Below, piece by piece: positions 1 through 26,905 of a DNA stretch of 34,139 nucleotides. The stretch covers positions 1-34,139 of the forward strand of contig CAZENJ010000007.1 of NCBI GenBank assembly GCA_964513485.1. The letters are read 5' to 3'. The translations under genes were made by a program, and so were the position numbers. Within the stretch, counting starts at the first letter, position 1. Each line of letters begins with the position of its first letter. The notes beneath the pieces were generated by a model. It was given only the letters and a program-made list of their open reading frames with translations. It was not told the origin of the DNA and made no database searches. The stretch is from an uncultured Thermotogae bacterium. Its GTDB lineage: Bacteria > Bipolaricaulota > Bipolaricaulia > M55B111.

Positions 1-1173
1 GAAACGAGAAAGGAACAGGGCTGGCTGAGCCAGGTCTATGCGGACCTGGCTCGGATATTTGACCTGGTACCGAAGTACCTGGAGGAGGAAAGGTCCGTCT
101 CGATCGCCTACTACGGTAATATCGTCGACCTGCTCGACTATATAGTCGAAAACGAGATAGACGTCGATCTCCTCTCCGACCAGACCTCCTGCCATGCCGC
201 CTACTCCGGGGGCTACCACCCGGTGGGCTATACCTACGAGGAGAGCCGGCAGCTGCTGAGCCAGGAGCCGGAGCGGTTCAAAGAGGAGGTTGATAGGTCC
301 CTGGAGAAACACTTTCACCTGATCCAGCAACTGGTCGAGCGAGGTGCCTACTTCTTCGACTACGGCAACAGCTTCATGAAGGCTGTTTACGACGCGGGCG
401 TGACTGAAATCGCAAAGAACCCCGCCGACCCCAGTTCCGGCTTTATCTTCCCCTCCTACGTCGAGGACATCATGGGACCGGTCTTCTTCGATTACGGCTA
501 CGGACCCTACCGCTGGGTCTGTCTGTCGGGCAAGAAGGAGGACCTAAGCAGGACCGACCAGGCAGCGGCGGAGATGATCGACCCCGACCGGCGCTCCCAG
601 GATTACGACAACTACGTCTGGATCCGGGACGCGGAGGAAAACGACCTGGTCGTCGGTTCGCAGGCGAGAATCCTCTACACGGACGGACCGGGCAGAGTTG
701 CCATGGCGCTTGAGTTCAACAGGCTGGTCCGGGAGGGCGAGATCGGCCCGGTGATGATCGGCCGGGACCACCACGATCCCGGCGGAACCGACTCCCCCTA
801 CAGGGAGACCTCCAACGTCGAGGACGGCAGCAATATCATGGCCGAGATGTCAGTCCACGACTTCGCCGGCAACGTCGCCCGCGGCATGACCATGGCCGTG
901 GAGAGCAACGGCGGCGGCGTCGGAATCGGCAAGTGCTTCAACGGTGGCTTCGGCCTGGTGCTGGACGGGAGCAAAAGAGTGGACGAGATCATCAAATCGG
1001 CCATCGACTGGGACGTCCACGGCGGAGTCGCCAGGCGGTCCTGGGCGCGGAACGAACACGCCGTCGAGACGATGATCGAGTGGAACGAGCGAAAAGGTGC
1101 AATGGGCCACGCCACGTTGCCCTATCACGCGGATGAGGATCTGATAGCGAATGCGATCGAGGAGAAATCGTAA
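1..1173 (+). CDS. hutU: Urocanate hydratase (urocanase), C-terminal roughly 390 aa; 5' end lies outside the window
   Basis: Frame 1 is open from base 1 (ETRKEQGWL...DQTSCHAAYSGGYHPVGYTYEE), so the listed ORF at 223 is only the first in-frame Met. Urocanase-typical stretches: FFDYGNSFMKA, SYVEDIMGP, FDYGYGPYRWVCLSG, GRDHHDPGGTDSPYRETSN. Neighbouring hutI supports the call. Confidence 0.9.
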   Translation, partial: ETRKEQGWLSQVYADLARIFDLVPKYLEEERSVSIAYYGNIVDLLDYIVENEIDVDLLSDQTSCHAAYSGGYHPVGYTYEESRQLLSQEPERFKEEVDRSLEKHFHLIQQLVERGAYFFDYGNSFMKAVYDAGVTEIAKNPADPSSGFIFPSYVEDIMGPVFFDYGYGPYRWVCLSGKKEDLSRTDQAAAEMIDPDRRSQDYDNYVWIRDAEENDLVVGSQARILYTDGPGRVAMALEFNRLVREGEIGPVMIGRDHHDPGGTDSPYRETSNVEDGSNIMAEMSVHDFAGNVARGMTMAVESNGGGVGIGKCFNGGFGLVLDGSKRVDEIIKSAIDWDVHGGVARRSWARNEHAVETMIEWNERKGAMGHATLPYHADEDLIANAIEEKS

Positions 1174-1203
1174 TCCAGCGCGAAAAGCAGCCGGCACAAT
1201 TAG

Positions 1204-2487
1204 TTAAAAATTCGGTTCCCCTTTTTGCCAGATCGTCTCGCCCAACTTGATCACCCGTTTTGCCGAGTTAGCACCGATATGGTAGGCCAGGTGTCTGTAG
1301 TCGGGGGCATCGATTACCACCAGATCGCCCTGCTTGCCCGGTTCGATCGTTCCGGCCCTATCCGCCATATCGACAGCGGCCGCGGCATTCAGGGTAAGGG
1401 CGGTAATCGTTTCTTCAATGGTCAGGTTCATATACAGGGTAGCGAGGGAGAAGAGTAACGGTATTGATTCGGAATAACAGCTACCGGGATTGAGGTCCGT
1501 GGCCAGGCTCACGGGTAAACCGTGGTCGATCATCCACCTGCCCCGGGCGTATTTCTCCTGCAGGCTGAAGGCGGTTATCGGAAGTAAGACGGCGATAACG
1601 CCATTTTCCTTCATCATCCGTAACCCGTCCTCGGAGGCTTTTAAGAGGTGATCCGCGGAGATGGCACCGACCTCGGCCGCCAGTTCTGCGCCACCGGTTC
1701 CTGCTATTTCGTCGGCGTGAATCTTCGGAACCAGACCTAATCCTTTCCCCCTTTTCAGGACTTTTCGGGATTCTTCAACCGTAAAAGCACCTCTGTCGCA
1801 AAATACGTCGCAGAATTCTGCTCCCCGCTCGGCTGCCAGCGGGGCAATATCTTCGACGACGAAGTCGACGTATTCTTCCCGCCTGTCGGCATATTCTTCC
1901 GGAACTGAATGGGCGCCGAGGAAAGTCGGCCTGACGTCCAGCGGGGTTTCCTCGTTCAGCTCGGTCATTACTCTTAACTGTTTTAACTCGGTATCTTTGT
2001 CCAGCCCGTAGCCGGTCTTTCCTTCAACCGCAGTTACGCCGAGTCCAACCATGGATCTCAGCCGTTCCCTTGCTTCCCGTTTTAGCTCGGCGAAACCGGC
2101 TTTTCTGGTTGACCTGACGGAGCTGGCTATACCGCCGCCCTCTTCCGCGATTTCTTCGTAACTTTTTCCCTCGAGCCTCATCTGAAATTCCTCTGCCCGG
2201 TAGCCGGAAAAGACGAAGTGCGTGTGGGGGTCTATGAGTCCCGGCAGGACCGGTCCACCCTCGGCGTCGACGACGCTTGCTTCGTCTGTATTTGAGCCCG
2301 TAAAGTCTCCCCGGCTTCCTATTTCCCGGATCGTCCCGTCTTCAATCAGGATCTCTCTCTGTTGCGATACGGAAAGCCGGTTCATCTCCGAGCCAAACTG
2401 CGCTTCGCTGCCTTCCGGCGTTACGAGCTGGCCGATATTTTTTACGATCGTCCGGTTCTTCTCGTTCGTGGTATCAGTTTCGTTCAT
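1204..2487 (-). CDS. hutI: Imidazolonepropionase (amidohydrolase superfamily)
   Basis: 427 aa. Metal-binding GLIDPHTHFVFSG motif, KIHADE and SADHL motifs, and length typical of HutI. Convergent with hutU. Confidence 0.9.
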   Translation of the reverse strand: MNETDTTNEKNRTIVKNIGQLVTPEGSEAQFGSEMNRLSVSQQREILIEDGTIREIGSRGDFTGSNTDEASVVDAEGGPVLPGLIDPHTHFVFSGYRAEEFQMRLEGKSYEEIAEEGGGIASSVRSTRKAGFAELKREARERLRSMVGLGVTAVEGKTGYGLDKDTELKQLRVMTELNEETPLDVRPTFLGAHSVPEEYADRREEYVDFVVEDIAPLAAERGAEFCDVFCDRGAFTVEESRKVLKRGKGLGLVPKIHADEIAGTGGAELAAEVGAISADHLLKASEDGLRMMKENGVIAVLLPITAFSLQEKYARGRWMIDHGLPVSLATDLNPGSCYSESIPLLFSLATLYMNLTIEETITALTLNAAAAVDMADRAGTIEPGKQGDLVVIDAPDYRHLAYHIGANSAKRVIKLGETIWQKGEPNF

Positions 2488-2569
2488 GTGTCTTCAACAC
2501 CTCGGAAAATGTCGCCAGTCAAGAACCCCGCCCTCGGGATCGATGAAACGGACGGAAGTCGTTATTTGC

Positions 2570-3472
2570 TTAAAGATCCTCCAGCAACCTGTTCTCGATA
2601 ACCTGGTCTCCGGAAAAGTTGTCGAGCTTCAGGTAATGCTCGGCCACGTTTAGAAGGGCTTCCACGGGGACCAGACCGACGATTTCACTCTCCTTTATGC
2701 CTGTTCCGTGTCGCTCGGCTTCGATCCGGATCAGCTCGAAGGTCTGCTGGAGCGACGTCCTGGTATAATCCGTCATATTCATCGAGACCTGCACCGCCTC
2801 TTCTTCTTCCAGGTCGACGCCCATTGCTTTGCAGTACCGAAGCCCGCCGCTCGAATGTCGGACCGCCCGGGCAATCTCCCTGGCGACGGAGAGATCGTCG
2901 GTATCAAGATTTACGTTAAATGCCACAAGTGGTTTGCGGGCCCCGACCGCGGTAACTCCGGCAGTCGGGTGAACTTTGTCCGGACCGAAGTCCGGTTTCC
3001 AGTTTCCCCTGGTAATTTTTTCCGGAAAACCTTCGAATTCGCCCCGGCGTATTTCGGCCAGGTTCTTTCGTTCCGGCCTCGTGGCAGCCTCCTCGTAGAG
3101 ATAGATCGGTATTTCGTACTTTTCCCCCGCTTCCTCGGCCAGCCTCTTTGCCAGCTCGATCGCCTCGGTCATGGTCACGTTTCTGACCGGCGTAAAGGGA
3201 ACCACGTCCGTGGCGCCCATCCTGGGATGTTCCCCCTGGTGTTCATTCATGTCTATCCGGTCGACGGCAACGCCCATCGATTCCAGGGTCGCCTGAAAAA
3301 GTCCGTCCGGACTGCCCACGTTTGTTACGACCAACCTGTTGTGAGCGGGATCGGCCGAATAATCGAGTAACTTCACGGCCTCGTTTTTCTCGAACGGCTC
3401 CACTATCCTTTCTATCGTTTCTTCGTCCTTCCCGACGCTGTAATTCGGAACCGACTCAAGAATTTTAGTCAT
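2570..3472 (-). CDS. ftcD: Glutamate formimidoyltransferase (FtcD N-terminal type, no cyclodeaminase domain)
   Basis: 300 aa. Starts ...ESVPNYSVGKDEETIERIV and contains HPRMGATDVVPF, both characteristic of formiminotransferase. Strong RBS (GAGGAGG) upstream. Sits directly upstream of hutI on the same strand. Confidence 0.85.
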   Translation of the reverse strand: MTKILESVPNYSVGKDEETIERIVEPFEKNEAVKLLDYSADPAHNRLVVTNVGSPDGLFQATLESMGVAVDRIDMNEHQGEHPRMGATDVVPFTPVRNVTMTEAIELAKRLAEEAGEKYEIPIYLYEEAATRPERKNLAEIRRGEFEGFPEKITRGNWKPDFGPDKVHPTAGVTAVGARKPLVAFNVNLDTDDLSVAREIARAVRHSSGGLRYCKAMGVDLEEEEAVQVSMNMTDYTRTSLQQTFELIRIEAERHGTGIKESEIVGLVPVEALLNVAEHYLKLDNFSGDQVIENRLLEDL

Positions 3473-3483: not shown

Positions 3484-4527
3484 TCATTTTTCGATCCTTA
3501 ATTTTTCGATTAAATCGGACTCTCTTGCCAGCGGTTCGATCTCAAAGGTCTCAGATCCGCCGTCCTTTTCCAGGATAACCTCCAACTTTTCCTCGTCCCT
3601 GCCCTGACTGTATCGTCCGGTTAACCGCGCGGCGAGGGTTACGTCCTCTTCGGCAGCGCCCTCTGTAATCAGTGTCAGAGGACCGGGAAAATCGGAAACC
3701 CTCAACCTCCAGTAAGCGGAAGCGAATTCCTCCAGCCGGGCGTTCTCCTCTTCATTTCTGCCGATTATCGCTTTCCCCCCCTCCGGCAGGCGAAAGTGCC
3801 GGCCGTTTTTGAGAAGCTTGAGGTCCCTTGCCGTCGTAGCCTCTTTCCCCTTGTGTTCGAACACCTCGTTAATTCGGTGGCCGAACTCTTCTTCGGTGAG
3901 CAGACAGCCCCCGGCCGGCTGGCTGTAGTGGTCTATCCCGTATTGCTCGGCGAGTTCCAGCTGCCGCTTGCGGGACCGGCCTTCTATATCCAGGAGTTTT
4001 TCTCGCTCGACCCATCCCTCTTTTTCCGGCAGGGTTGGAGGAAGCAGCCTGGCGGATAACGGTCGAAGCAACCGCTCGTCGATATCGCTTTCATTTTGGA
4101 TCAAATTTAGAGTATCTTTTCTCTGCGTCATCGGGCGTTGCCCCAGTACTTCTCCCGTGATGATGAAGTCCGCCCCGATCCTCTCCATGTATTTTTTCGC
4201 CTGGTTTAAAATCAATATTCTGCAGTCCAGGCACGGGTTCATCGCGGAACCGTAACCGTGCTCGGGTGACTTTATAATCTCCAGATAGTCCTCTTCCGGG
4301 ACGTCAAGCAGCCTGATTTCTATTCCGAGGTCCCTTTCGATCTCCTCGAAAAGTTCTTCGTCGTCCTCGCTAATAAAGCCGGTGCGAAAGTTGACCCCGA
4401 TAACCTCCACTCCCTGATCGACGATCAGCTTTGCCGCCAGCTGACTGTCCATACCGCCGGAAACCAGAGCCAGCGCACTTATCCTCTTGTTTTCAGCGTG
4501 CACCTTATGATCTACCTCACAGTTCAT
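3484..4527 (-). CDS. PP-loop ATP pyrophosphatase, ThiI/MnmA-like putative tRNA sulfurtransferase lacking a THUMP domain
   Basis: 347 aa. SGGMDS PP-loop motif near the N-terminus. PCLDCRILI...GADFIITGEVLGQRPMTQ resembles the ThiI/MnmA catalytic core. The precise substrate cannot be assigned by eye. Confidence 0.6.
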   Translation of the reverse strand: MNCEVDHKVHAENKRISALALVSGGMDSQLAAKLIVDQGVEVIGVNFRTGFISEDDEELFEEIERDLGIEIRLLDVPEEDYLEIIKSPEHGYGSAMNPCLDCRILILNQAKKYMERIGADFIITGEVLGQRPMTQRKDTLNLIQNESDIDERLLRPLSARLLPPTLPEKEGWVEREKLLDIEGRSRKRQLELAEQYGIDHYSQPAGGCLLTEEEFGHRINEVFEHKGKEATTARDLKLLKNGRHFRLPEGGKAIIGRNEEENARLEEFASAYWRLRVSDFPGPLTLITEGAAEEDVTLAARLTGRYSQGRDEEKLEVILEKDGGSETFEIEPLARESDLIEKLRIEK

Positions 4528-4645
4528 GATAAATTTTCTGTTTCTTCTTAATCATCAATTAAACTAGGTTGCGGGGTCAATTTCTATACCCCGAGAGGGA
4601 TTGCGGGGAAAAACTCCCGTGCCGGTTAATTCCCTCGCGCGGCCA

Positions 4646-5863
4646 TTAGAAACCATCGTTGAAGTAAGTCTCCTGCGGAAGAAAGGCGGCTCGTAAGAGT
4701 GGTAATTTATTTTTGTTCTTGACTTTCATATTATCGGACACACAGAGCTGTTTCGGGCTGAGATAACCTGTATAAAGCTGTGCCAGAGAACCGATATCGA
4801 GAGAGAAGTCCACCTCTGACGAAGTTTCCTCGTGCTGGACCCTGCATTTGCGGGAATCCTGAGAAAAATTCAGGGTGAAGGTACCCTGGTTCGCTGCCAG
4901 GAGAGAATCGGTAATTTCAAAAGTTATTTCTCCTTCTATTCCCGTATCGTAGACCAAACTTTCCAGGGCAGCCTCTACGTCTACTATTCGGAACATTACT
5001 CCCGGATTTAACTCGGTCTCTACACTGCGTGGATCCTCGACTAAGTCCAGCAGGGTTAAGTTTTCAGGTAACGGTCCGGGAACCCCTACCTTTTTCACCT
5101 GGGAGCCATGATTATAGAGAAACCTTAAAAGTTGATAGAAAGTTTCCCCGTCCCGGTAAACCAGTTCTTTTACTTTTAGGTCTTTTTTCCATTCGTCTTC
5201 AGAGCTTTCTTGCAGGGAGTAAAGTACGTACCCTTTGGCCTCGCCATCGTTTTCCCAGAGATAGCAATAACTTCTTTCCTTCCAGGGATTGAACTTTCGG
5301 TTGTTCCACCAATCGGAAGTTCGCCGGAGAGGCAGGTTAAATTGACGGGCGAAATCGTGATATAAGGGCTCGATTTCTTCGTATTCCTCGAAGGTAATCT
5401 TACGAAAACTTCCCAGCTTTTCGGTCCGCTCGAAATCTAGCTCTTCAGGACCTAAGAAATAAATATGTGATTGGTCGCAGACTCTCCAGCCGAGCCTGTT
5501 GTAGAAAGGATAGGAGAAGGGCCAGAGGGCGGACAGGGTTATCCCTCTGTCCCTGAGTTCTGACAGAATTTCCCCCATCATAGTTCTGATGTAACCCTGG
5601 TGTCTGTTCTCCGGTCGAGTCGCAACCATACTTATTCCACCGACTGTCAGCCAGTCTTCCCTTATGTGGGACGACAGCTCATGAATGCTGGAAATTGCCA
5701 GCAATTCTCTATCTTTGTAAATCCCTCTTCTTTCCCCTACGCCATCCCAGAAATCCTCTTCGCTATCGTAACTATCCTCCTCCTCGTGGGGCCTGAAGGC
5801 GTAATGCAGTAAATGGTGAAACTCTTCTCGCTGATCGTCGGGTACTTCTCTGTAAGTGACCAC
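4646..5863 (-). CDS. Eis-type GNAT N-acetyltransferase (GNAT-GNAT-SCP2-like architecture)
   Basis: Motifs RPENRHQGYIRTMMGEIL and LWPFSYPFYNRLGW, about 400 aa, Eis-like. The longest ORF runs to 5941, but a GTG at 5863 is preceded by GGAAAGGAGGG at good spacing and gives an Eis-typical N-terminus, so I prefer 5863. Confidence 0.75.
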   Translation of the reverse strand: MVTYREVPDDQREEFHHLLHYAFRPHEEEDSYDSEEDFWDGVGERRGIYKDRELLAISSIHELSSHIREDWLTVGGISMVATRPENRHQGYIRTMMGEILSELRDRGITLSALWPFSYPFYNRLGWRVCDQSHIYFLGPEELDFERTEKLGSFRKITFEEYEEIEPLYHDFARQFNLPLRRTSDWWNNRKFNPWKERSYCYLWENDGEAKGYVLYSLQESSEDEWKKDLKVKELVYRDGETFYQLLRFLYNHGSQVKKVGVPGPLPENLTLLDLVEDPRSVETELNPGVMFRIVDVEAALESLVYDTGIEGEITFEITDSLLAANQGTFTLNFSQDSRKCRVQHEETSSEVDFSLDIGSLAQLYTGYLSPKQLCVSDNMKVKNKNKLPLLRAAFLPQETYFNDGF

Positions 5864-6124
5864 TTTCCCTCCTTTCCGTAAGTTCTGCTTAATTAATACC
5901 TGATGGTTAAGTATAATAACGTATTTCCGAACTCTTGTCATCAGATCAGAAAGGGGATAGCTCTGCCCCCGACGATAACGAGGTGAAATTCTATTACCAA
6001 GATTAGCTGAGAACCCTCAGGGCTACCTCTGAGGTTGAATTTGCTGGTTTTTCGGTCGAGAAAAAACATTGGATTGGAGAGCACGTCCCGTTAATATTTG
6101 AGGGCAATAGAATTGGGGATAATT

Positions 6125-7219
6125 ATGGATAATCTTTTGATCAAACCGACCGGTCCGAACTGCAACCTTGCCTGCGATTATTGTTTCTATCTCGAGAAAT
6201 CGTCGCTCTACCCCGGGAAAAACCGGATGGAACTATCCACCGCAGAAAACATGATTGCCCAGATGATGGAAAAAGGGGAACCGGTAACCTTCTCCTGGCA
6301 GGGGGGAGAACCGACCCTGATGGGTCTGGACTTCTTTCGGGAAGTAATAGAACTCCAGAAAAAGCACGGCTCCGGGGGTCAGAGCGTCACCAATACCATC
6401 CAGACAAACGGCCTGCTGTTGAACGAAGCCTGGATGAAGTTTCTGGCCAAATACAACTTCCTGGTCGGCCTCAGCCTGGACGGACCGAGAGATCTGCATG
6501 ATGCCAACAGAAAGTATCCGAACGGGGAAGGAAGTTTTGCCGATGTTATGGAAGGGGCCGAGCTCTTACAGGAGTACGAAGTCCCGTTCAACCTCCTGAC
6601 CGTCCTGAACTCTCGCACGGTGCAACAGCCCAAACGGATAGTAAACTTCTTCCTCCAGAATGACTTTACTCATTTTCAGTTTATCCCGGCGATAGAGACG
6701 CGGGAGACCGACGAAGGTGAAAGAGTTGCACGATTTTCCCCCGAACCGGAAGAGGTCGGCAGGTTTCTGGAAGCAGTGTTCGAAAAGTGGGCGGCCGACT
6801 TTCCACCCCCCTTCAGCGTGCGTTACTTCGAATCCCTGGTAAATACCTGTCTCGGTCAGGATCCCGGCATGTGCAGAATAGATGCCTCCTGCGGCTCCTA
6901 CCTGGTGGTCGAGCACAACGGTGACGTCTACCCCTGTGACTTCTTCGTCGAAGAAGACTGGAAGCTGGGAAACCTGAACGAGAGTAGCTTGAAAAGGATC
7001 CAGAACGGGGAGAGGTTCGAAGAGTTCGCCGCGGCCAAGGCCGAGTTCTCCGCAGAGTGCCATGACTGTGACTACCTGCCCTACTGCTACGGCGGCTGTC
7101 AACGCTACCGGGGGCTGCCCGGAGGGCCGGAAAAGCGCAGCTACTTGTGTCAGGCCCACAAATACTTCCTTTCCCGCAACCTGGAGAAAATTAAGGAGAT
7201 AGCCTCCCGGGTACGATGA
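6125..7219 (+). CDS. Radical SAM/SPASM enzyme of the anaerobic sulfatase-maturating enzyme (AnSME) type
   Basis: N-terminal KPTGPNCNLACDYCFY (CX3CX2C). WQGGEPTL, IQTNGLLL and VGLSLDGP blocks line up with AnSMEs as I remember them. C-terminal SPASM cysteines (CGSYLVVEHNGDVYPCDFF ... CHDCDYLPYCYGGCQRYR). ATG at 6125 is preferred over TTG at 6098. Confidence 0.8.
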   Translation: MDNLLIKPTGPNCNLACDYCFYLEKSSLYPGKNRMELSTAENMIAQMMEKGEPVTFSWQGGEPTLMGLDFFREVIELQKKHGSGGQSVTNTIQTNGLLLNEAWMKFLAKYNFLVGLSLDGPRDLHDANRKYPNGEGSFADVMEGAELLQEYEVPFNLLTVLNSRTVQQPKRIVNFFLQNDFTHFQFIPAIETRETDEGERVARFSPEPEEVGRFLEAVFEKWAADFPPPFSVRYFESLVNTCLGQDPGMCRIDASCGSYLVVEHNGDVYPCDFFVEEDWKLGNLNESSLKRIQNGERFEEFAAAKAEFSAECHDCDYLPYCYGGCQRYRGLPGGPEKRSYLCQAHKYFLSRNLEKIKEIASRVR

Positions 7220-10427: not shown

Positions 10428-10532
10428 ATGTACATCCAAGCAGAAACTGGTCTTATTAAATTGACTATTGGAATGGTTTGATATAGAATCCAATTAGAAG
10501 GAATTTATTATTCTTAAAGGGGGTGAAGTATT

Positions 10533-11459
10533 ATGGATAGTCTAAAAAGAAGCGGTTCGGGTATCGTAATTATTTCTCTCTTATTGCTTCTGAGCTTTTC
10601 CCTGGCGGTTTTCGGGGCAGCGGAAGAAGAGTGCTGTATTTACATGGAGAAGCCCGATTGCCCGCCTCGCTACACGTCTTTCAGGCCATCTACGGATATC
10701 TACGATGAAGGGGAAACCGTCAAACTGACGCTCTACGGTCTGAATGACGAGTACAAGATGGAACGAATAGAGATAGAAGGAGTCGGGCCGCGCGGAGAAG
10801 TCGTTTACAGCGAGGAAATCAATCAGAATATCACTCCGGACGTCTCTAAGTGGAGCTGGAGCTGGAACCAGATAGGTAGCTCCGGGGAACAGGTAGAAAC
10901 CGGACATTATTTTGCTATTCTGGAGACGCAGTGCTGTGGTTATTACAGGACTGACTTCAGGATTCAGAGAAAAGTCCGGATTCCCAGGTGCTCCTGCTGT
11001 TGCGGTAGTTATTACATGGACCTCGACACGACCTGCAATCGTTACAGCCCCGGAGAAGACATCACGGTAAGCTTTTCAAACTGCAATGGTTGCGGACTGG
11101 TCTTTGAGAGGCTCTATGTCGAAAGGGAAGAACGGTGTTGTGGCAGTGAAGTCGTTTTCAGCCGCGAATTTACTGACGGTTTTCAGCCGGGACGTGACTG
11201 GAGCTGGATCTGGAGCCAGCAGAATAATAGCGGAAATCAGGTCGGCCCCGGTCAATACACGGTATATATCGAAACGCGTTGCTGCGGCACTTTGAGCACG
11301 AGCTTCAATATTTACGAGAGAAGCTGCTGTCAGCGCACCTGCTGCCGAAGCAGTTACTGTGGTGAGAGGAGGAGTTGCTATAATAGGGGGAGCCGCTGCT
11401 GTGGCTCCGGCTTCTGGCCTTTCTTTCTAGGATCTTGCTGCAATAACTGTTGTAATTAG
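10533..11459 (+). CDS. Secreted cysteine-rich protein of unknown function: signal peptide, two tandem beta-sandwich-like repeats, then a Cys-rich C-terminal tail
   Basis: Good RBS (AAGGGGG). N-terminal signal peptide (K/R then IVIISLLLLLSFSLAVFGAA). Internal duplication, residues about 34-144 versus 155-260. 28 Cys in 308 aa. I recognise no family. Confidence 0.8.
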   Translation: MDSLKRSGSGIVIISLLLLLSFSLAVFGAAEEECCIYMEKPDCPPRYTSFRPSTDIYDEGETVKLTLYGLNDEYKMERIEIEGVGPRGEVVYSEEINQNITPDVSKWSWSWNQIGSSGEQVETGHYFAILETQCCGYYRTDFRIQRKVRIPRCSCCCGSYYMDLDTTCNRYSPGEDITVSFSNCNGCGLVFERLYVEREERCCGSEVVFSREFTDGFQPGRDWSWIWSQQNNSGNQVGPGQYTVYIETRCCGTLSTSFNIYERSCCQRTCCRSSYCGERRSCYNRGSRCCGSGFWPFFLGSCCNNCCN

Positions 11460-11539
11460 AGGATCAAAATAACTTCCGGTGGAGGAAATCACCCGAGCTC
11501 CTTCACCGGAAGCTCATGTAGAGCCATCCCAATCCGAAC

Positions 11540-11574
11540 TCCCGGTGGACGATCCGGGATTAATCTTTCTTTCT
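11540..11574 (+). terminator. Candidate intrinsic terminator downstream of the Cys-rich gene
   Basis: TCCCGG (11540-11545) / CCGGGA (11554-11559) 6-bp GC-rich stem with an 8-nt loop, followed by T-rich TTAATCTTTCTTTCT. A larger hairpin (CTTCCGGTG 11473-11481 / CACCGGAAG 11504-11512) lies just upstream. Confidence 0.35.
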
Positions 11575-11673
11575 ACCCGGGGCAACTTCCCGTAATCCCC
11601 GGTATTCCTCTTTTCTACCTGCGGTTCCTTTATCGGGATCGAGTTTAAGACTATAATAATTCGAGGTGATTTT

Positions 11674-13975: not shown

Positions 13976-14226
13976 TGTAGATTACCTTGATTATACGGTG
14001 GGTTTACTCCCTTTCGAAGTCCGATTCGGGTATATTAATTCCAGGTTCTTGGTTTCAAAATATTTATCCCCAATTCATCTTAATATCGTGAAATGTGAAA
14101 GAAAAACAAGTAATCCTCGCCATATAAGTACAACCTGCTCGATCCTTAAATTTCTTTAAATTTCCTTCCGTCCTGGAGATTTTCCCCTGTGATTTGCTAG
14201 CTTTTGCTTTCACGTTCGATAAAACC

Positions 14227-14259
14227 GCAGGTAATTCCCCCTGCGTGGGAATTACCTGC
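14227..14259. other. Perfect 13-bp inverted repeat (stem-loop) inside a 550-bp intergenic region
   Basis: GCAGGTAATTCCC (14227-14239), 7-nt spacer CCTGCGT, GGGAATTACCTGC (14247-14259), verified base by base. No T-run follows on the + strand. On the - strand it is followed by GGTTTTAT. Confidence 0.5.
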
Positions 14260-14429
14260 TTCCGATCTCGGCCTCCGATAGGATTTTCCTGAACGGGAAG
14301 CAAAATCTAGCATTTTATAGATAAGTAGATTGTTCCCATTCCTATTGGGGAGTATTGAGCCGGAATAGTGCACAAGCCTGAGTCCTGTTTGTAATCCGAG
14401 GGAAAGGAAATTACACTTCCAGTGGGTTA

Positions 14430-14444
14430 ATTTGCAAATGCAAA
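14430..14444. promoter_or_regulatory. Candidate operator: palindrome ATTTGCAAAT overlapping a tandem TGCAAA TGCAAA
   Basis: ATTTGCAAAT (14430-14439) is self-complementary. TGCAAA repeats at 14433-14438 and 14439-14444. About 95 nt upstream of the 14535 start codon. No binding protein is known. Confidence 0.25.
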
Positions 14445-14534
14445 TAACGTTGCTTACCCTGTTCGTTCCGCTCCGAAACGAGGCCAGAGGGAATCGGGAT
14501 TGAAACATCGGGTAAGGAACAGGAGGTGAGGCAG

Positions 14535-15362
14535 ATGAAACTGACGGTACTGCTGTTAACGGGAGTAGTTGTCCTATCGTTGTTTCAGGCCGCTGCCGCG
14601 GGGAGCTCGGATGAGAAAAGTCGGGTCGTACCGCCGGAGCAGATGGACCTGACCGTGGTATACGACAACTACGGTTTTCAGCCGGCACTGGGGACTGCCT
14701 GGGGCTTTTCCTGTCTCGTGGAAGGTCTCCCGGAGACGATACTCTTCGATACCGGCGGAAACGGCGAGCTGTTGCTCGCCAACATGAATGAGCTCCGAAC
14801 CAGGCCGGAGGATATTGATATCTTGGTCCTCTCTCATATCCACGGCGATCACACCGGCGGGCTGGAGGAATTGTTGAAAGAGATGGACGACGGCGTCGTC
14901 TACACCCCCTATTCCTTTCCGGCCAGTTTCCGGCGGAAGATAGAAAGAGCCGGCCTGGCGGCGGAGGACGTAAAAAACGGGATTGAATTCTGCCCCGGTG
15001 CCCGTTCCACCGGTGTCATGGGCGCGGGGATAAAGGAACAGGCTTTGGTTCTGGATTCTCCCCGGGGAGCCGTGCTGATTACAGGTTGCGCTCATCCCGG
15101 AATCGTAAACATGTTGGAACGCGCCGCCGAAATTACGGACGATAGAGTATATCTCGTCCTGGGCGGGTTTCACCTCGCCTCGGCGGGCTCGGGCAGGATC
15201 AAGGAGATCGTCGAGAGTTTTCGGGAACTTGGAGTGGAAAAAGTCGCCCCGTGCCATTGTTCCGGGGATCGGACGAGAGAGCTTTTCCGCGAAGCTTACG
15301 GTACGGACTTTATCGCCGCGGGCGCTGGAAAAGTGGTAGAAATAAAGGAGGTCAGTAAATAG
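14535..15362 (+). CDS. Metallo-beta-lactamase-fold protein (COG1237-like) with N-terminal signal peptide
   Basis: HIHGDHTGG metal motif, later GCAHPG and CHCSG. N-terminus MKLTVLLLTGVVVLSLFQAAAAG looks like a cleavable signal peptide. ATG at 14535 has AGGAGG 8 nt upstream, whereas the GTG at 14526 overlaps that RBS. Confidence 0.75.
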   Translation: MKLTVLLLTGVVVLSLFQAAAAGSSDEKSRVVPPEQMDLTVVYDNYGFQPALGTAWGFSCLVEGLPETILFDTGGNGELLLANMNELRTRPEDIDILVLSHIHGDHTGGLEELLKEMDDGVVYTPYSFPASFRRKIERAGLAAEDVKNGIEFCPGARSTGVMGAGIKEQALVLDSPRGAVLITGCAHPGIVNMLERAAEITDDRVYLVLGGFHLASAGSGRIKEIVESFRELGVEKVAPCHCSGDRTRELFREAYGTDFIAAGAGKVVEIKEVSK

Positions 15363-15368
15363 CTGCAA

Positions 15369-16109
15369 ATGATAGTCGAAAGTCTGCTGGATTCGGTGGA
15401 AGCAAAGCTGGAGAAGCGAACTGTAAAGAGGGCGGTGCTGGGTCTGGGTTACACCGGCGTGGAGCTGGACGACGGTTCCTGTGGCCTGGCGGCAACCCTC
15501 CGCTGGGAGGCCCCGGGTTGCTGCAGTCTGGTCGAAGGTGCCGGGGAGCTGGACGGAAGGAGTGCGCTCGAACTGGCCCGGGAGGCCGGTTCGGCCAGGG
15601 TTCTGCGCTCCTCCCTCGGGTTAGCGACGCTTAACGCAGTGATAAATAATTCCGGCGAGAGCAATACGGTTTCGCCGCTGGAGGCGCTCGATCCGGGCCC
15701 CGGAGACAGCGTCGGAATGGTCGGATATTTTGGCCCGCTGATAGAGAAAATCGGGGAGAAGGCCGATGAGTTCTACGTCTTCGAACGAAGGCCTTCCGAC
15801 GAGGAATTCGTCTACCCGGACTGGGCGGCGGATCAGCTACTCCCGGAGTGCGATAAAGTAATAATTTCCGGTACGACCCTGATAAACAAGACGATGGAGG
15901 GGCTGCTCAAACGCTGCCGGGGAGAAGTCGGAATATTGGGACCTTCGACGCCGCTTTCTCCGGTGTTAGCAGATTATGGCGTCGACTACCTCTTTGGTTC
16001 TGTCGTGGTCGACCCGGAGAGAGTCCTGAAAATTATCGCTCAGGGAGGGGGTACCCGGACTTTCGGGGACGGAGTAAGGAAGATAAATCTGGAACTGTCC
16101 CGAGAATAG
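15369..16109 (+). CDS. DUF4213/DUF364 family protein (Rossmann-like, putative metal-chelation domain)
   Basis: 246 aa. AVLGLGYTGVELDDGSCGLA..., GLATLNAV, VGMVGYFGPL, ISGTTLINKT. This pattern matches the DUF364 family as I remember it. Function is uncharacterised. Confidence 0.65.
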   Translation: MIVESLLDSVEAKLEKRTVKRAVLGLGYTGVELDDGSCGLAATLRWEAPGCCSLVEGAGELDGRSALELAREAGSARVLRSSLGLATLNAVINNSGESNTVSPLEALDPGPGDSVGMVGYFGPLIEKIGEKADEFYVFERRPSDEEFVYPDWAADQLLPECDKVIISGTTLINKTMEGLLKRCRGEVGILGPSTPLSPVLADYGVDYLFGSVVVDPERVLKIIAQGGGTRTFGDGVRKINLELSRE

Positions 16110-19990: not shown

Positions 19991-20737
19991 ATGATACTGT
20001 CTTTGAAACCAGAAGATCGCGGGACGAGTGGAACTTCAGGTTCGAAAGAAGAGCCGGAATCGACCGGCCCGGAGAAACGGGAGAAGCTGAAGATCGTCCT
20101 GGCTGACGACCACACCCTGGTCCGCCAGGGAATAGAGACGCTCCTGTCCGGAAAGGAAGCATACGAGATAGTCGGTCAGGCAGGGGATGGTTACGAGGCT
20201 CTGGAGCTGATCGAAGAGCACGAACCGGATATTGCGATTATCGATATTTCAATGCCCCGGCTCAACGGCCTGGAGGCGGCACGAAAGTTAAAGGACAAAG
20301 GAATGGATCTGGACGTTATATTTCTCTCGATGTACGACGACGAGGGCTACATCAGGCGGGCGATCAAGACCGGAGCGTCCGGTTACCTGTTGAAGGAGGA
20401 CGCAATAGACGAGCTGGAAGAAGCGATTGAGTCCGTGAGAAACGGATTTCACTACATGTCTCCGCCAATTCTTACTTCTCTCGTGGAGATGACGGAACGC
20501 GGTTTGAGCGCGATAGAGCCGGACGTACTGGATCGCCTGACCTCACGGGAGAGGGAGATACTTCAGTTAATCGCCGAGGGGAACTCCAATAAGGAGATCG
20601 CGGAACTGCTATCCCGCAGCGTGGAGACGGTTAGAACGCATCGGGCGAACCTGATGGAAAAACTGGACATACATTCGGCGGAGGAGATTCGGGAGTTTGC
20701 CCTGAAAGAAGGAATAATAAAGGATGAGGAGAAATGA
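19991..20737 (+). CDS. Response regulator, NarL/LuxR family (REC + LuxR-type HTH), with a roughly 33-aa low-complexity N-terminal extension
   Basis: KIVLADDHTLVRQG...DIAIIDISMPRLNG (REC). LTSREREILQLIAEGNSNKEIAELLSRSVETVRTHRANLMEKL (LuxR HTH). RBS AGGTGA 7 nt upstream of the ATG. Confidence 0.9.
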   Translation: MILSLKPEDRGTSGTSGSKEEPESTGPEKREKLKIVLADDHTLVRQGIETLLSGKEAYEIVGQAGDGYEALELIEEHEPDIAIIDISMPRLNGLEAARKLKDKGMDLDVIFLSMYDDEGYIRRAIKTGASGYLLKEDAIDELEEAIESVRNGFHYMSPPILTSLVEMTERGLSAIEPDVLDRLTSREREILQLIAEGNSNKEIAELLSRSVETVRTHRANLMEKLDIHSAEEIREFALKEGIIKDEEK

Positions 20738-21765
20738 GCCGAAACGAGAAAATTCCGTCCCGCCTTTCGGGATACAGGGGAGAGATTTCGGAGAAGCTCA
20801 GGGTTTACGTGGACGGACGGCAGGGAAAGCTGTACGAGATGGTGAATTACCATCTCGGTTTCGACGGCGAGGTGGCCGACCGGCGCCTCCAGGGCAAGGC
20901 GATAAGGCCCTGTCTCGTCCTCTTCACGACCGAGGCCCTGGGCGGCAACCCGGCTGAAGCAATGCCGGCCGCGATTTCCCTGGAGCTGATTCATAACTTT
21001 TCCCTGGTTCACGACGACATTCAGGACGACGCGGACACCAGACGCGGCAGGGAGAGCGTGCAGAAGAAGTGGAGCCCGGCCCAGGCGATAAATGCTGGCG
21101 ACGGCCTGAAGGATCTGTCGCTGCTGGCGCTGACCGAGCTCTCCGACGGGAATAGACCGGAGAGGGCACTAGAAGCCGTCTCGGCGCTGAGCGAATACTC
21201 CCTCCGGATGATTCAGGGCCAGGTACTGGACCTGCACTACATGGAGAGGGACGACATAGATATTCCCGGTTACCTGAAAATGATCCGGGACAAGACCTGT
21301 GCCCTACTCGAAGGCGCTTTCCACCTCGGAGGGATATACGGTGGAGCAGACGAGGCCGAGATAGACGGACTGATCGAGTTCGGCCGGCTGCTGGGTTACG
21401 TCTACCAGATCAGGGACGATTACCTGGGAATCTGGGGCCAGCCGGAGATGGCCGGTAAGTCCGTTCAGTCGGATCTCGTGGAAAAGAAGCGGTCGTTCCC
21501 CGTAGTTTACGCCATGCAGGAAGGTCGGGGGGATGAACTGGAAGAATTGAAGGATATATATTATCGGGAAGGCAAGTTAACCGAGGAAGAGGTAAATCGG
21601 GTGAGAAATATTCTCGAAGGAATGGGTGCCAGGGAAAAGACGGAGGAGTGGGCGGAAAAGTACTGGAAAGAAGCGGAAGAACAGTTGGGAAAAACGGATA
21701 TGGATGCTCGAGCCAGGGAAGATCTGAAAAAGTTCGGTTCCTTTTTGTTAAACAGGAAGAAATAG
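20734..21765 (+). CDS. Polyprenyl diphosphate synthase (short-chain trans-prenyltransferase, FPP/GGPP synthase type)
   Basis: First Asp-rich motif LVHDDIQDD...RRG, second YQIRDDYLG. The start ATG overlaps the regulator stop (ATGA). Confidence 0.85.
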   Translation: MSRNEKIPSRLSGYRGEISEKLRVYVDGRQGKLYEMVNYHLGFDGEVADRRLQGKAIRPCLVLFTTEALGGNPAEAMPAAISLELIHNFSLVHDDIQDDADTRRGRESVQKKWSPAQAINAGDGLKDLSLLALTELSDGNRPERALEAVSALSEYSLRMIQGQVLDLHYMERDDIDIPGYLKMIRDKTCALLEGAFHLGGIYGGADEAEIDGLIEFGRLLGYVYQIRDDYLGIWGQPEMAGKSVQSDLVEKKRSFPVVYAMQEGRGDELEELKDIYYREGKLTEEEVNRVRNILEGMGAREKTEEWAEKYWKEAEEQLGKTDMDARAREDLKKFGSFLLNRKK

Positions 21766-21776
21766 GAGGAATATAC

Positions 21777-22820
21777 ATGGGCAGACCGATGAAGATGAAC
21801 GCCAGGATAGCGAGTTACGCCGCCAAACAGGTGGCCAAAGGGAGGAGACGTTTCCCCCTGGTAACGATTATCGAGCCGCTGGAGCAGTGTAACCTGCGGT
21901 GTACCGGATGCGGAAGAATCAGGGAGTACTCGGAGGACATGGACGAGAGGATGTCGCCGGAAGAGGTTCTGGGTGCCGCGGAAGAGTCCGGTGCTCCCGT
22001 CATTTCGATTTCAGGGGGCGAGCCGCTGATACATCCACAGATAGAGACGATAGTAAAGAGTTTGATCGACGAAGGTTACTACATTTACCTCTGTACAAAC
22101 GGCCTGTTGCTCGAGGAGAAATTGAATACTTTCGAACCCTCGGAAAAACTGGCTTTTGCCGTCCACCTGGACGGGACGGAAGAAGTTCATGACAAGTTTA
22201 CCAACAGGGAAGGAGTTTATCAGACAGCCTTTTCGGCACTGGAAAAGGCGATAGATAGGGGGTTCCGGGTCACGACGAATACGACGATATTCAAGGAGAG
22301 CGACCCGGACGACCTGCACGAGCTATTCCACAGGTTGACCGACGCCGGGGTCGAAGGGATCATGCTGGCTCCCGGATACAACTACGCCTCCGTCGACAGG
22401 AGTGCGGAGGAGCATTTCCTGGCACGCAAGGAGTCGATCGAGGTGTTTCAGGAAATTCTGGATCCGGATAAGGTCGAGGACTTTCCCTTTTACAATACCC
22501 CGCTTTACCTGGATTTTCTCCGGGGAAAGAGGGAGCTGAACTGTACTGCCTGGGCTTCGCCGACTTACACCGTCCGGGGGTGGCGGAAACCGTGTTACGT
22601 CCTGGCCGACGAACACGTCGATTCGGTGGAGGAAATACTCGAGGAAGAACTGTGGGAGGAGTACGGAATCGGCAACGACCGGCGCTGTAATAGCTGTATG
22701 ATCCATTCCGGCTTCGATACCGCCGGGACGATAGATCAGCTGCGGAGCAGGGAAGGGATGGTGGACCTGGTAAAGAGCGCGGTGCCGAAGAAGTTCAAGG
22801 ATATGCTATCGACTTCGTAA
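21777..22820 (+). CDS. hpnH: Adenosyl-hopene transferase, radical SAM
   Basis: N-terminus ...ARIASYAAKQVAKGRRRFPLVTIIEPLEQCNLRCTGCGRI matches the HpnH pattern (CX3CX2C directly after a basic helix). AGGAGG RBS 7 nt upstream of ATG 21777. The longer ORF from 21648 overlaps the preceding gene and is rejected. Confidence 0.85.
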   Translation: MGRPMKMNARIASYAAKQVAKGRRRFPLVTIIEPLEQCNLRCTGCGRIREYSEDMDERMSPEEVLGAAEESGAPVISISGGEPLIHPQIETIVKSLIDEGYYIYLCTNGLLLEEKLNTFEPSEKLAFAVHLDGTEEVHDKFTNREGVYQTAFSALEKAIDRGFRVTTNTTIFKESDPDDLHELFHRLTDAGVEGIMLAPGYNYASVDRSAEEHFLARKESIEVFQEILDPDKVEDFPFYNTPLYLDFLRGKRELNCTAWASPTYTVRGWRKPCYVLADEHVDSVEEILEEELWEEYGIGNDRRCNSCMIHSGFDTAGTIDQLRSREGMVDLVKSAVPKKFKDMLSTS

Positions 22821-22826
22821 AGAAAG

Positions 22827-23513
22827 ATGTTGACCGTGCTGGCCGCGATGAAAGTCGAGCTGGAAGGACCGTTCGGGCTGGATAAGAGCTCCACTTACTG
22901 GGCGGAATGCGACCTGGTTTATACGGGGATCGGCAGAAAGAACGCTCTGGAGACGCTGGAAAATTTAAAAGGGGATCCTGAAATGGAAGGAATACTTTCC
23001 GTTGGGTTCGTCGGTTCGATAGACCCTGAAGTCAAGCCTGGTGACCTCTGTCTCGTGGATAGAGTACAGGCAAGCGATCGGAAGGATAGCTTTTTCTCCG
23101 ACCGGGACTGGCAGGATCGTGCCAGTAGTGCACTGGAGGATGATTACCGGACCTGTGGGCTGCTGACGGTAGAGGATACCGTTAGCGGGGTCGAGGAAAA
23201 GCGGTCGCTGATAAAGGTCAAGGGGGCTTCGATAGTCGATCAGGAGACTTACTGGGTTGCCAGAGCGGCTGACGAACGGGATCTCCCCTTTTTGAGTCTT
23301 CGCGTCGTCTCAGACGGGCTGGATCAGGAATTGCCGCCGAAGTCCTGTTACGACGGCGACTCCGGCCGAGTCCGGCCCGGGAAAGTTCTCGCCTGGCTGG
23401 CGAGGGAACCGGGGAGGTTTGTCGATCTGACCCGGCTAGGAGTAAATAGTTTTCGGGCCCGGAGACGGCTGGCCGGCGCGGTCAACAGCGTGGTTCCCGC
23501 CCTTATGAGCTGA
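22827..23513 (+). CDS. hpnG: Hopanoid-associated phosphorylase/nucleosidase (PNP/UDP family)
   Basis: 228 aa. GIGRKNA, SVGFVGSIDPEVKPGDL and SLRVVSD blocks typical of the PNP_UDP_1 fold. Sits between hpnH and hpnA. Sequence alone cannot exclude an MTA/futalosine nucleosidase. Confidence 0.7.
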   Translation: MLTVLAAMKVELEGPFGLDKSSTYWAECDLVYTGIGRKNALETLENLKGDPEMEGILSVGFVGSIDPEVKPGDLCLVDRVQASDRKDSFFSDRDWQDRASSALEDDYRTCGLLTVEDTVSGVEEKRSLIKVKGASIVDQETYWVARAADERDLPFLSLRVVSDGLDQELPPKSCYDGDSGRVRPGKVLAWLAREPGRFVDLTRLGVNSFRARRRLAGAVNSVVPALMS

Positions 23514-23518
23514 TTCGG

Positions 23519-25581: not shown

Positions 25582-25585
25582 GCTT

Positions 25586-26437: not shown

Positions 26438-26455
26438 CCAAAGGAGGTTAAGAGG

Positions 26456-26905
26456 ATGTTGACCTCAACGTCTACTGAAATATTGAAGGTGCAGACAACA
26501 AAGGCCCCGGAATTCATCGATATCACGGACGAGGTAACTCAGTTTGTCGAAGACAGGGAGGTCGAATCGGGCGCGCTGGTGATTTTCAGTCGTCACACCA
26601 CGGCGGCGATCCGGATAAACGAAAACGAATCCCTGTTGAAAAAGGACATGGCGGACTTTCTCCAGAAGGTCGCGCCGTCGGAGGACTACTATCGCCACAA
26701 CGACTTCTCGATTCGGACCGAAAACATGACCCCGAACGAGGTGCCGAACGGACACGCGCACTGTCAGTCCCTCGGCCTCGGGGCCAGCGAAACGGTACCG
26801 ATCATCGAGAGCGAGCTGAAGCTGGGGAAATGGCAGAGGGTATTTTTGATCGAGCTGGATCATTCGAGAGAAAGGGAGGTTATCCTTCAGGTTCTCGGTG
26901 GCTGA
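26456..26905 (+). CDS. yjbQ: YjbQ/UPF0047 family protein (annotated elsewhere as secondary thiamine-phosphate synthase)
   Basis: 149 aa. SRHTTAAIRINENE and NGHAHCQS motifs with C-terminal GxWQ.V.L.ELD, typical of UPF0047. RBS AAAGGAGG. Confidence 0.85.
   Translation: MLTSTSTEILKVQTTKAPEFIDITDEVTQFVEDREVESGALVIFSRHTTAAIRINENESLLKKDMADFLQKVAPSEDYYRHNDFSIRTENMTPNEVPNGHAHCQSLGLGASETVPIIESELKLGKWQRVFLIELDHSREREVILQVLGG

Follow-up and report, generated by a model that had tools for sequence, protein, structure and literature searches.

A candidate cell-envelope protein with two cysteine-rich FlgD-Ig-like domains and a thiol-rich tail in halophilic Bipolaricaulota

The closest described counterparts of the protein considered here are the FlgD Ig-like domains (PF13860) of bacterial and archaeal surface proteins and of type IX secretion system (T9SS)-type C-terminal domains (CTDs), with which it has in common a seven- or eight-strand beta-sandwich and the signature W-x-W-(D/N)-Q...G-x-x-V-x-x-G-x-Y...F-x-I. 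The gene that encodes it, referred to as X, lies on the forward strand of the 34,139-nucleotide (nt) contig CAZENJ010000007.1 (GenBank assembly GCA_964513485.1; the whole stretch is referred to as the window), which is titled as an uncultured Thermotogae bacterium and placed by GTDB in the Bipolaricaulota. As in FlgD_ig proteins, the domain of X is tandem and repeatable and stands in an extracytoplasmic context, and distant homologues of X pass the Pfam threshold for this family. X itself, in contrast, reaches only 14.4 bits (E=0.039, residues 224-247 only) and stays below the gathering cutoff of 27 bits, carries an N-terminal Cys extension, has CC in place of the usual D-A-G/E-G hairpin turn, adds CxxC and CC loops, and has neither a flagellar nor a T9SS context. 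MG domains (alpha2-macroglobulin, complement C3/C5) and the C-terminal beta-barrels of transglutaminases are the best structural matches, but with an identity of only 10-18% and modest template-modelling (TM) scores they match at the level of the fold only, and X is devoid of a thioester, a bait region and catalytic domains.

With regard to its cysteines, X can be set beside three further groups. CC-doublet disulfide frameworks are known from CC chemokines, alpha-conotoxins, granulins, hydrophobins and plant 8-Cys-motif proteins; like these, X has conserved vicinal Cys in an exported protein, and the C...C...CC pattern of domains of the type of its first one (D1-type) has the same arithmetic, but the folds are unrelated, there is no homology, and the disulfides predicted for X would have to form in a strict anaerobe of a sulfidic habitat. 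Hyper-cysteine proteins build cross-linked or protective layers in the Chlamydia OmcA/OmcB outer-membrane complex, the Giardia VSPs and the keratin-associated proteins (KAPs). X shares the high Cys content of this group (7-13%), and the stretch CCQRTCCRSS in its tail resembles the CCQ/CCR repeats of KAPs, but there is no relation in sequence or fold, the X family consists of small proteins (~30 kDa) and is clade-restricted, and its cross-linking is putative. Soft metals, finally, can be bound through CC, CxC and CxxC motifs, as in metallothioneins, the Cys-rich copper storage protein Csp1 and the CC pairs of Mer proteins. X has the same motifs and ends with a CCxxCC tetracysteine, but most of its Cys lie in a rigid, aromatic-rich (W, Y, F) beta-sandwich, it matches no such family, it appears to be exported by Sec, and no metal-homeostasis genes are nearby. 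Proteins of the metallothionein type have few aromatics, no regular structure and a hidden Markov model (HMM) match; only the tail of X is disordered, and this tail contains F, W and Y.

We tentatively favour the possibility that X is a cell-envelope or surface protein made of two CC-stapled FlgD-Ig-like domains and a thiol-rich tethering tail. What is unusual here is the density and conservation of extracytoplasmic Cys in a strict anaerobe, together with an unprecedented tail; the fold class itself is very common. Bipolaricaulota have only just been cultured, and the proteins of their toga-like envelope have hardly been characterised. Strict anaerobes are usually expected to make little use of extracytoplasmic cysteine, and a conserved, probably well-expressed exported protein with 7-9% Cys in strict anaerobes of sulfidic brines is contrary to that expectation. 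If its Cys form disulfides, the clade must fold proteins oxidatively under anoxia; free thiols, in contrast, would densely cover the cell surface, with consequences for trace-metal and sulfur chemistry.

Predicted export and domain architecture of X

The coding sequence and the parts of its product are as follows (AF2, AlphaFold; pLDDT, predicted local distance difference test):

10533..11459, + strand: coding sequence of X with ATG start, specifying a 308-amino-acid (aa) exported hyper-cysteine protein (28 Cys); homologues n=16, orthologous loci n=13
10533..10619, + strand: Sec-type signal peptide, residues 1-29, with a predicted signal peptidase I cut after G28 or A29, judged from n-region and h-region composition
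10620..10976, + strand: domain 1, residues 30-148, an N-terminal Cys extension (C34, C35 and C43 in CPxRY) plus a beta-sandwich with C134-C135 at the F-G turn (AF2/Foldseek)
10977..11015, + strand: inter-domain linker, residues 149-161, with the Cys cluster C153-x-C155-C156-C157 (pLDDT <50)
11016..11318, + strand: domain 2, residues 162-262, a beta-sandwich with C168, C184-xx-C187 (B-C loop), C202-C203 (C-C' turn) and C250-C251 (F-G turn; AF2 strands)
11319..11456, + strand: C-terminal tail, residues 263-308, basic, with 12 Cys, a short hydrophobic core (GFWPFFLG) and the end CCNNCCN (pLDDT ~30)

The signal peptide, described as clear in a preliminary description of this DNA, was readily recognised. 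Its n-region (MDSLKRSGSG) is basic through K5 and R6, hydrophobicity along the protein is strongest over residues 11-25 (mean Kyte-Doolittle value of 2.85), the AlphaFold model has a helix at residues 9-24, and the small residues G28 and A29 read as a signal peptidase I site. Hydropathy revealed no other segment of transmembrane grade outside the signal peptide. Since X has neither a lipobox ([LVI][ASTVI][GAS]C; the first Cys, C34, is 5-6 residues past the predicted cut VFG/A-AEEECC and is preceded by acidic residues) nor a twin-arginine motif (S/T-R-R-x-F-L-K; the aligned orthologues have a single R/K and no RR motif), Sec export with signal peptidase I cleavage is the simplest reading of the sequence. 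Genome inference for Ca. Bipolaricaulis had pointed to a toga-like diderm envelope with an outer S-layer (surface layer; PMC6092417), and cryo-electron microscopy of the first Bipolaricaulota isolate indicated a toga-like diderm envelope and outer S-layer as well (bioRxiv 10.1101/2025.11.21.689855). In such an envelope, a Sec-exported protein that is neither a lipoprotein nor a beta-barrel would lie in the periplasm, occupy the toga space or adhere to one of these layers, and we propose that X is exported by Sec to the cell envelope or surface of halophilic anaerobic Bipolaricaulota.

Mature X (32 kDa) consists of two acidic domains (isoelectric point 4.5-4.7) followed by a disordered, basic, Cys-rich tail (isoelectric point 8.8). 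The length and cysteine inventory first reported for X matched exactly: among its 28 Cys, 21 are found in nine CC doublets (residues 34-35, 134-135, 202-203, 250-251, 265-266, 270-271, 289-290, 302-303 and 306-307) and a single CCC triplet (155-157). The Cys density of X is 9%. In the mature part, adjacent Cys-Cys steps number 11, whereas shuffling gave a mean of 2.7 (20,000 shuffles, p ~5e-5).

Comparison of the two halves of X (residues ~43-144 and 158-260) by BLASTP revealed that they are homologous (E=6e-15, 31% identity over 105 residues), and each of the motifs previously listed as shared (YxxGE, WSWxW(N/S)Q, SGxQVxxGxY, ETxCCG and FxI) was recovered from both copies. D1-type domains and domains of the type of domain 2 (D2-type) were each also found alone in other proteins, and because each type thus has single-domain relatives of its own, the two domains appear to be old paralogues. 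The internal duplication proposed earlier can therefore be retained as homology, but not as a recent event. At the DNA level, direct repeats join the two domains (10792-10871 versus 11143-11219, spaced 348-351 nt); these repeats (21 nt, 90% identity; 20 nt, 85% identity) cover the conserved EVV(Y/F)S and WSWxW motifs and could stem from codon conservation or from occasional gene conversion between the two.

A direct assignment of X to a family was rejected, as Pfam and NCBIfam yielded sub-threshold FlgD matches only. FlgD_ig was the sole match in the Pfam scan at E<=10, domain 1 alone had no FlgD_ig match, NCBIfam gave none above threshold, and a PDB sequence profile search with X returned nothing meaningful, in agreement with the initial impression that the layout belongs to no described family. 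Regarding the HdrB-type CCG domain (PF02754), X had no Pfam match and its Cys spacing is unlike Cx31-39CCx35-36CxxC.

More distant relatives nevertheless linked X to a superfamily. An X-family profile searched against 1.84 billion representative proteins yielded 119 proteins at E<1e-3, and the profile matches P0018 (E=2e-48), P0027, P0042 and P0045, which themselves score 31-95 bits on FlgD_ig (77 bits for P0018 and 95 bits for P0042). Similarly, 13 out of 50 extracted domain sequences match FlgD_ig (best E=2.3e-9), with isolated matches to MG2 and BsuPI. The AlphaFold model of full-length X contains two beta-sandwiches, with a pLDDT of ~90 for domain 1, ~80 for domain 2, and <50 for the linker and tail, while a single-domain AF2 model of domain 1 (from a 50-sequence alignment) has 8 strands, a pLDDT of 90.7 and a predicted TM-score of 0.82. 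With Foldseek, the top match of the single domain was alpha2-macroglobulin MG2 (2p9r, TM-score 0.56/0.64), and its matches to MG2/Ig/Fn3-like sandwiches had TM-scores of 0.4-0.64; others included complement MG domains, Fn3-like domains of glycosidases and C5a peptidase, superoxide reductase and SoxYZ, none of them specific. The full-length tandem gave generic matches to transglutaminase/protein 4.2 barrels, C3 and RbmA (TM-score <=0.29). Since profile-linked relatives pass the FlgD_ig threshold and the fold matches agree, both domains of X appear, by transitive homology and predicted structure, to belong to the FlgD-Ig/MG-like beta-sandwich superfamily; profile links, model and Foldseek thus all bear out the original guess at a FlgD-Ig/BsuPI-like beta-sandwich. 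The family could be defined in Pfam or NCBIfam as a new subfamily, the CC-stapled FlgD-Ig-like domain, although its importance is limited by the common fold and the small size of the family.

The SoxYZ chains among these Foldseek matches (E ~5e-4, TM-score 0.44) bear on a very unlikely alternative, in which X would be a SoxY-like sulfur or polysulfide carrier with an Ig-like body and a flexible C-terminal Cys arm holding periplasmic sulfane sulfur (persulfide/polysulfide). An Ig-like fold with a flexible Cys-bearing C-terminal tail and a sulfidic habitat would suit such a carrier, but the SoxYZ matches are no better than those to dozens of generic Ig-like folds, and X has neither the C-terminal GGCGG arm of SoxY nor an RR motif or Tat signal. 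Moreover, there are no sox, psr or sud genes nearby (the neighbours being AOR and transaldolase), and the tail has 5-12 Cys among orthologues instead of a single carrier Cys.

The architectures of the relatives point to the cell surface. In P0024, P0032, P0037 and P0039 a D1-type domain is N-terminal and is followed by 2-7 FN3 domains and a C-terminal transmembrane helix. What follows a D2-type domain is a GH113 catalytic domain in P0023, FG-GAP repeats in P0041, and a linker with a transmembrane anchor in P0033 and P0035. Cys-poor relatives are either multi-repeat transmembrane-anchored proteins (P0018, P0027) or a GH25+SH3 muramidase (P0042). All of these architectures are of an extracytoplasmic surface type. 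They also raise the question of whether the domains of X are ligand-binding modules (for glycan or cell wall, carbohydrate-binding module (CBM)-like, or adhesive), which would make X a lectin or adhesin, secreted or displayed on the surface, with purely structural Cys and a tail that is a mere tether. The D2-type domain before the GH113 mannanase and the FlgD_ig repeats before the GH25 muramidase occupy positions typical of binding modules, the D1-type domain at the distal end of transmembrane-anchored FN3 stalks resembles a displayed binding head, and by topology the Cys-stapled pole would be equivalent to the Fn3/Ig binding loops. We nevertheless hold this to be distinctly unlikely, as no CBM or adhesin family of Pfam or NCBIfam matched X and no glycan-utilisation genes lie beside it; it is, moreover, compatible with the envelope-protein reading and not exclusive of it.

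Cysteine placement, proposed pairing and the C-terminal tail

According to the predicted strand order, the CC of ETxCCG forms the turn between the last two strands (F-G) in both domains. In Ig/Fn3-type sandwiches the N-terminus, the B-C loop and the F-G loop meet at one pole, and because of this generic topology combined with the predicted strand order, the Cys of each domain would lie mainly at one pole. Specifically, C34, C35 and C43 would be brought beside C134 and C135 in domain 1, and C153 and C155-157 beside C184, C187, C250 and C251 in domain 2, with C168, C202, C203 and the first tail Cys predicted at the other pole of domain 2.

These positions are strongly conserved, as the preliminary description had asked of the homologues. 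Across the orthologues, the 16 core Cys are 95% conserved versus 59% for the other core residues: C34, C43, C134 and C135 are invariant, the linker has four Cys in 14 of the 16, and conservation of the domain 2 Cys is 0.88-1.0. The number of core Cys is 16 in 12/16 orthologues, 14 in two and 15 in two, and in P0013 and P0014 one linker Cys and C250 were lost together. All D1-type domains of FN3-type relatives (7/7) have exactly four Cys in the pattern GC...YCPxRY...CC, while among D2-type domains four N-terminal Cys come with a hairpin CC, giving six Cys (P0023, P0035), and a single hairpin Cys gives four (P0030, P0034). These count patterns seem to fit pairing, and a bias towards even Cys numbers is an accepted indicator of disulfides in exported proteins (PMC2823432).

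In the envelope-protein reading, the CC at the F-G turn of each domain would join the N-terminal Cys extension at one pole, to which domain 2 adds the CxxC of its B-C loop. The two Cys of each doublet would be bonded to different partners, as in CC chemokines, conotoxins and granulins, and the disulfide-stapled loops would make a rigid, protease- and salt-resistant module. It had previously been argued that vicinal Cys, being strained as disulfides, point to metal sites. This argument is weak: in CC chemokines, alpha-conotoxins, granulins and hydrophobins, CC doublets of secreted proteins form classic frameworks in which each Cys is bonded to a different partner, and because such doublets commonly bond two separate partners, the strain of a vicinal disulfide is no argument for metal sites. 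Of the functions first suggested for X, a cross-linked envelope protein is the favoured one, supported by the surface architectures of the relatives and by the Cys patterns.

Several points weigh against this reading. The disulfide pairing of X is derived from generic Ig-fold topology, several Cys-tail-bearing family members have odd Cys counts per domain, and two disulfides and a Cys4 metal site would agree equally well with exactly four conserved Cys; the parity of Cys counts is suggestive for the core and mixed overall, and does not separate two disulfides from a Cys4 site. To our knowledge, the tail has no precedent as an anchor. Many strict anaerobes are without oxidative folding of the DsbA/DsbB/VKOR type. 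Finally, the habitat is anoxic and sulfidic, the north-arm sediment of Great Salt Lake having ~30% NaCl and 6-110 uM sulfide (PMC11287216). In the literature, no paper on cysteine-rich proteins in Bipolaricaulota was found, and nothing relevant on vicinal cysteines combined with a periplasmic beta-sandwich.

Some of these points would equally suit an extracytoplasmic thiolate protein that binds metal, metalloid or metal sulfide, an explanation that we consider somewhat unlikely. In an anoxic sulfidic brine the 28 Cys would stay reduced, and the pole clusters (four Cys in domain 1 and about eight in domain 2), together with a flexible tail that offers a CCxxCC chelate, could hold Zn, Cu, Cd, As(III) or thiotungstate/thiomolybdate for scavenging, buffering or detoxification, and possibly for the supply of tungsten to the adjacent AOR. 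The strongly conserved 9% Cys in CxC, CC and CxxC motifs, the four Cys of D1-type domains as a Cys4 site, a tail Cys number without parity constraint and the habitat itself all agree with such a role. On the other hand, neither Pfam, NCBIfam nor PDB sequences gave a metal-binding family match, export is of the Sec and not the Tat type, and the Cys lie within a well-folded, aromatic-rich beta-sandwich and not in a metallothionein-like coil. Moreover, independent lineages have lost one N-terminal Cys along with one hairpin Cys, a pattern that suits bonded pairs better than a set of ligands.

The C-terminal tail has a common layout in the family, consisting of a basic Arg/Ser/Cys stretch followed by CCGxG, 6-9 hydrophobic residues and SCCxCC. 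Its conserved end reads CCGxG, [LF][FLWM]x[FL]F, 0-3 residues, SC(C), 1-4 residues and C(C)[DN] at the C-terminus, and similar C-terminal ends were found on more distant one-domain relatives (CCGFFPFLFCCPCN and CSGFFFPFLCGGCCCN). The number of tail Cys varies from 5 to 12 among orthologues with mixed parity, and in X roughly residues 263-288 are a Cys-rich insertion relative to most orthologues. The 99%-identical variant from another assembly (P0001) carries the tail changes G277C and S292Y and thereby reaches 29 Cys. Comparison of these sequences suggests that the Cys content of the tail is evolutionarily fluid.

This tail takes the position that a transmembrane anchor has in related proteins. 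Its hydrophobic core of 6-9 residues is too short for a transmembrane helix (~15-20 residues), and acidic or amide residues stand at the very C-terminus. NCBIfam at E<=10 gave no sorting-signal match for X (LPXTG, PEP-CTERM, GlyGly-CTERM, PGF-CTERM, MYXO-CTERM or T9SS CTD), a search with a 47-aa tail alignment gave no match at E<=10 among 2564 candidates, and in a scan of ~300 kb of Bipolaricaulota DNA the only ORFs with a Cys-rich C-terminus were those of family members. Because of its transmembrane-anchor position in relatives and its polybasic-hydrophobic-Cys make-up, the tail is read as a putative tether or cross-linking device. In the envelope-protein reading it would replace the transmembrane anchor and probably tether X to the membrane or toga; alternatively, it would probably cross-link X copies to each other or to other envelope components via unpaired thiols. 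The tail may thus be a new way of tethering proteins to the envelope.

A more far-reaching possibility, which we regard as unlikely, is that the tail module is an undescribed thiol-based device. It could be a new C-terminal envelope anchor in which an S-linked lipid or a covalent S-S or thioether bond replaces the transmembrane helix. Alternatively, it and the 8-Cys pole of domain 2 could jointly capture thiometallates or metal sulfides outside the cell in sulfidic brines. If true, such thiometallate capture by the tail and the domain 2 pole would functionally explain the invariant pairing of X with the tungsten AOR gene.

Distribution, transcription signals and genomic surroundings

A search covering 5.8 billion proteins yielded 16 homologues of X (47-62% identity plus the 99% variant), all unnamed or 'hypothetical' and all from metagenome-assembled genomes (MAGs) of Candidatus Bipolaricaulota/Acetothermia. 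Scanning the GTDB species representatives yielded 14 loci, all in Bipolaricaulota/Acetothermia, comprising 13 orthologues and a more distant single-domain relative (L022); identities to X across the 14 species-level MAGs are 40-63%. Several of the MAGs (loci L010, L011, L014, L016-L019 and L021) have the Bipolaricaulota-type syntenic block yet are titled 'uncultured Thermotogae bacterium', which is probably a taxonomic labelling issue. Orthologue records with a named source come from hypersaline sites and are 'Tobar' and 'GSL' isolates, labels that we read as Laguna del Tobar and Great Salt Lake. On these data the X family appears to be an uncurated one, confined to a halophilic anaerobic clade of Bipolaricaulota, with looser relatives in other metagenomes. 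It also seems to form small paralogous sets in some genomes, because the Acetothermia MAG C5M10_22 carries both a two-domain Cys-tail relative (P0019, at L008 8001-8888, not by AOR) and, on another contig, a second, single-domain relative (L022 6001-6342).

With these homologues, the notion that X is a spurious or decaying ORF or a recent foreign insertion becomes virtually negligible. The GC content of X (50%) is below that of the window (55%), which would agree with it, but full-length homologues keep the length, motifs, Cys, promoter, terminator and position of X across orthologous loci, and the domains gave confident AlphaFold models. This candidate was rejected on the 16 homologues, the Cys conservation and the 13 orthologous loci, and the complete lack of homologues that was to betray a spurious ORF was thus not what was found.

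The signals flanking X are as follows (SD, Shine-Dalgarno):

10461..10489, + strand: sigma-70-type promoter-like site TTGACT-17 nt-TAGAAT (10/12 consensus matches)
10516..10526, + strand: SD sequence AAAGGGGGTGA, 6 nt before the ATG (read from sequence)
11473..11512, + strand: strong hairpin directly 3' of the stop codon, with 14-nt arms that are 93% complementary, likely a terminator element (hairpin search and folding)
11540..11575, + strand: second hairpin of 6 bp (5 G-C pairs; the hairpin proper spans 11540-11559), followed by a T-rich run in the pattern of an intrinsic terminator (pattern match)

The AT-rich upstream region, ribosome-binding site and two downstream hairpins noticed initially were all recovered. 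The 105-nt spacer 5' of X has 30% GC, and five aligned orthologous upstream regions have their conserved islands at AATTGA (-35), TAnAAT (-10) and the SD, where a GG(G/A)GG(T)G block is kept. Downstream, the CTTCCGGTGG...CCACCGGAAG hairpin is kept in L001, L003 and L005, and the region of both hairpins has a minimum free energy of -42.2 kcal/mol (z=-3.9). Because X has its own promoter, SD and terminator, kept across orthologous loci, it appears to be a monocistronic unit with strong expression signals, in line with the separate transcription unit suggested before; with a promoter and terminator of its own, X would not be co-transcribed with AOR. Its description as 'inserted' between AOR and transaldolase does not hold, since the position is identical at every orthologous locus recovered (13 GTDB species representatives).

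The order AOR, X and (usually) transaldolase (TAL) is kept in each of these loci, with X directly downstream of AOR, and the AOR-X adjacency outlasts several local rearrangements, for example where OYE, MOFRL, TAL, anaerobic sulfatase maturase (anSME) or DUF364 genes are found in some loci and missing from others. For a metal-binding X, and for tungsten supply to AOR in particular, this persistence is a supporting point. Against it, no W/Mo/Zn/Cu transporter or chaperone was found in the window or the orthologous loci, X has its own promoter and terminator, and the distant relatives P0019, P0022, P0023, P0024, P0026 and P0040 have no AOR adjoining, their neighbours being unrelated to each other. 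Because distant relatives never adjoin AOR, the adjacency seems to reflect synteny within the lineage and not a functional link across the family. A functional link to AOR or tungsten was thus rejected as a candidate, the adjacency being perfect in the orthologous clade and absent in distant relatives, with no W/Mo uptake genes nearby. The co-occurrence envisaged in the preliminary description consequently stands for AOR within the orthologous clade, and fails for distant relatives and for W/Mo uptake genes.

Within the syntenic block X is the fastest-evolving gene, with identities of 44-63% compared to 66-81% for AOR, 71-86% for TAL, 67-92% for MFS and 71-89% for HisK. The fastest evolution within a block is typical of surface proteins, and the conservation seen in these alignments would be the pattern of an exposed protein with cysteines under strong constraint. 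Two of the loci contain anomalies for which frameshifts, pseudogenes or assembly errors are possible causes: the AOR match of L014 falls into two pieces (4178-5833), and in L013 a 555-aa stop-to-stop frame runs into X (5173-6828).

The window also contains, at 6098-7219 on the + strand, the gene for an anSME (radical SAM/SPASM; TIGR03942, 402 bits versus a cutoff of 349), which was seen in this window only and is absent from all orthologous loci; no sulfatase gene was found among the window ORFs scanned. X was rejected as a substrate of this enzyme: its invariant C43-P-x-R46-Y is one residue out of register with the sulfatase motif C/S-x-P/A-x-R, X has no sulfatase domain, and the anSME gene is absent from orthologous loci. 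We judged the resemblance of CPxRY to the sulfatase motif to be a coincidence.

Further downstream, the stretch 14197-16109 holds a 163-aa minus-strand ORF without Pfam or NCBIfam match beside a DUF4213/DUF364 'putative heavy-metal chelation' protein (15369-16109). Because the DUF364 gene has no counterpart in any other fetched locus, this stretch looks like a strain-specific insertion between a glycerate-kinase-like gene and an MFS transporter gene. A hopanoid/squalene and isoprenoid cluster occupies 20734-30053, with genes for a polyprenyl synthase, an HpnH-like radical SAM (rSAM) protein with DUF3463, a PNP_UDP (HpnG-like) protein, an epimerase, IspG, IspH and UPF0047, as well as two SQS_PSY (HpnC/D-like) proteins and an amine oxidase (HpnE-like). 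The first part of this cluster is kept downstream in L001, L003 and L007 as far as the fetched sequences reach, to the rSAM or PNP_UDP gene. At the other end of the window, histidine-utilisation genes (223-3472) encode the C-terminal part of a urocanase, an imidazolonepropionase-like amidohydrolase and a glutamate formiminotransferase, and are syntenic with L005.

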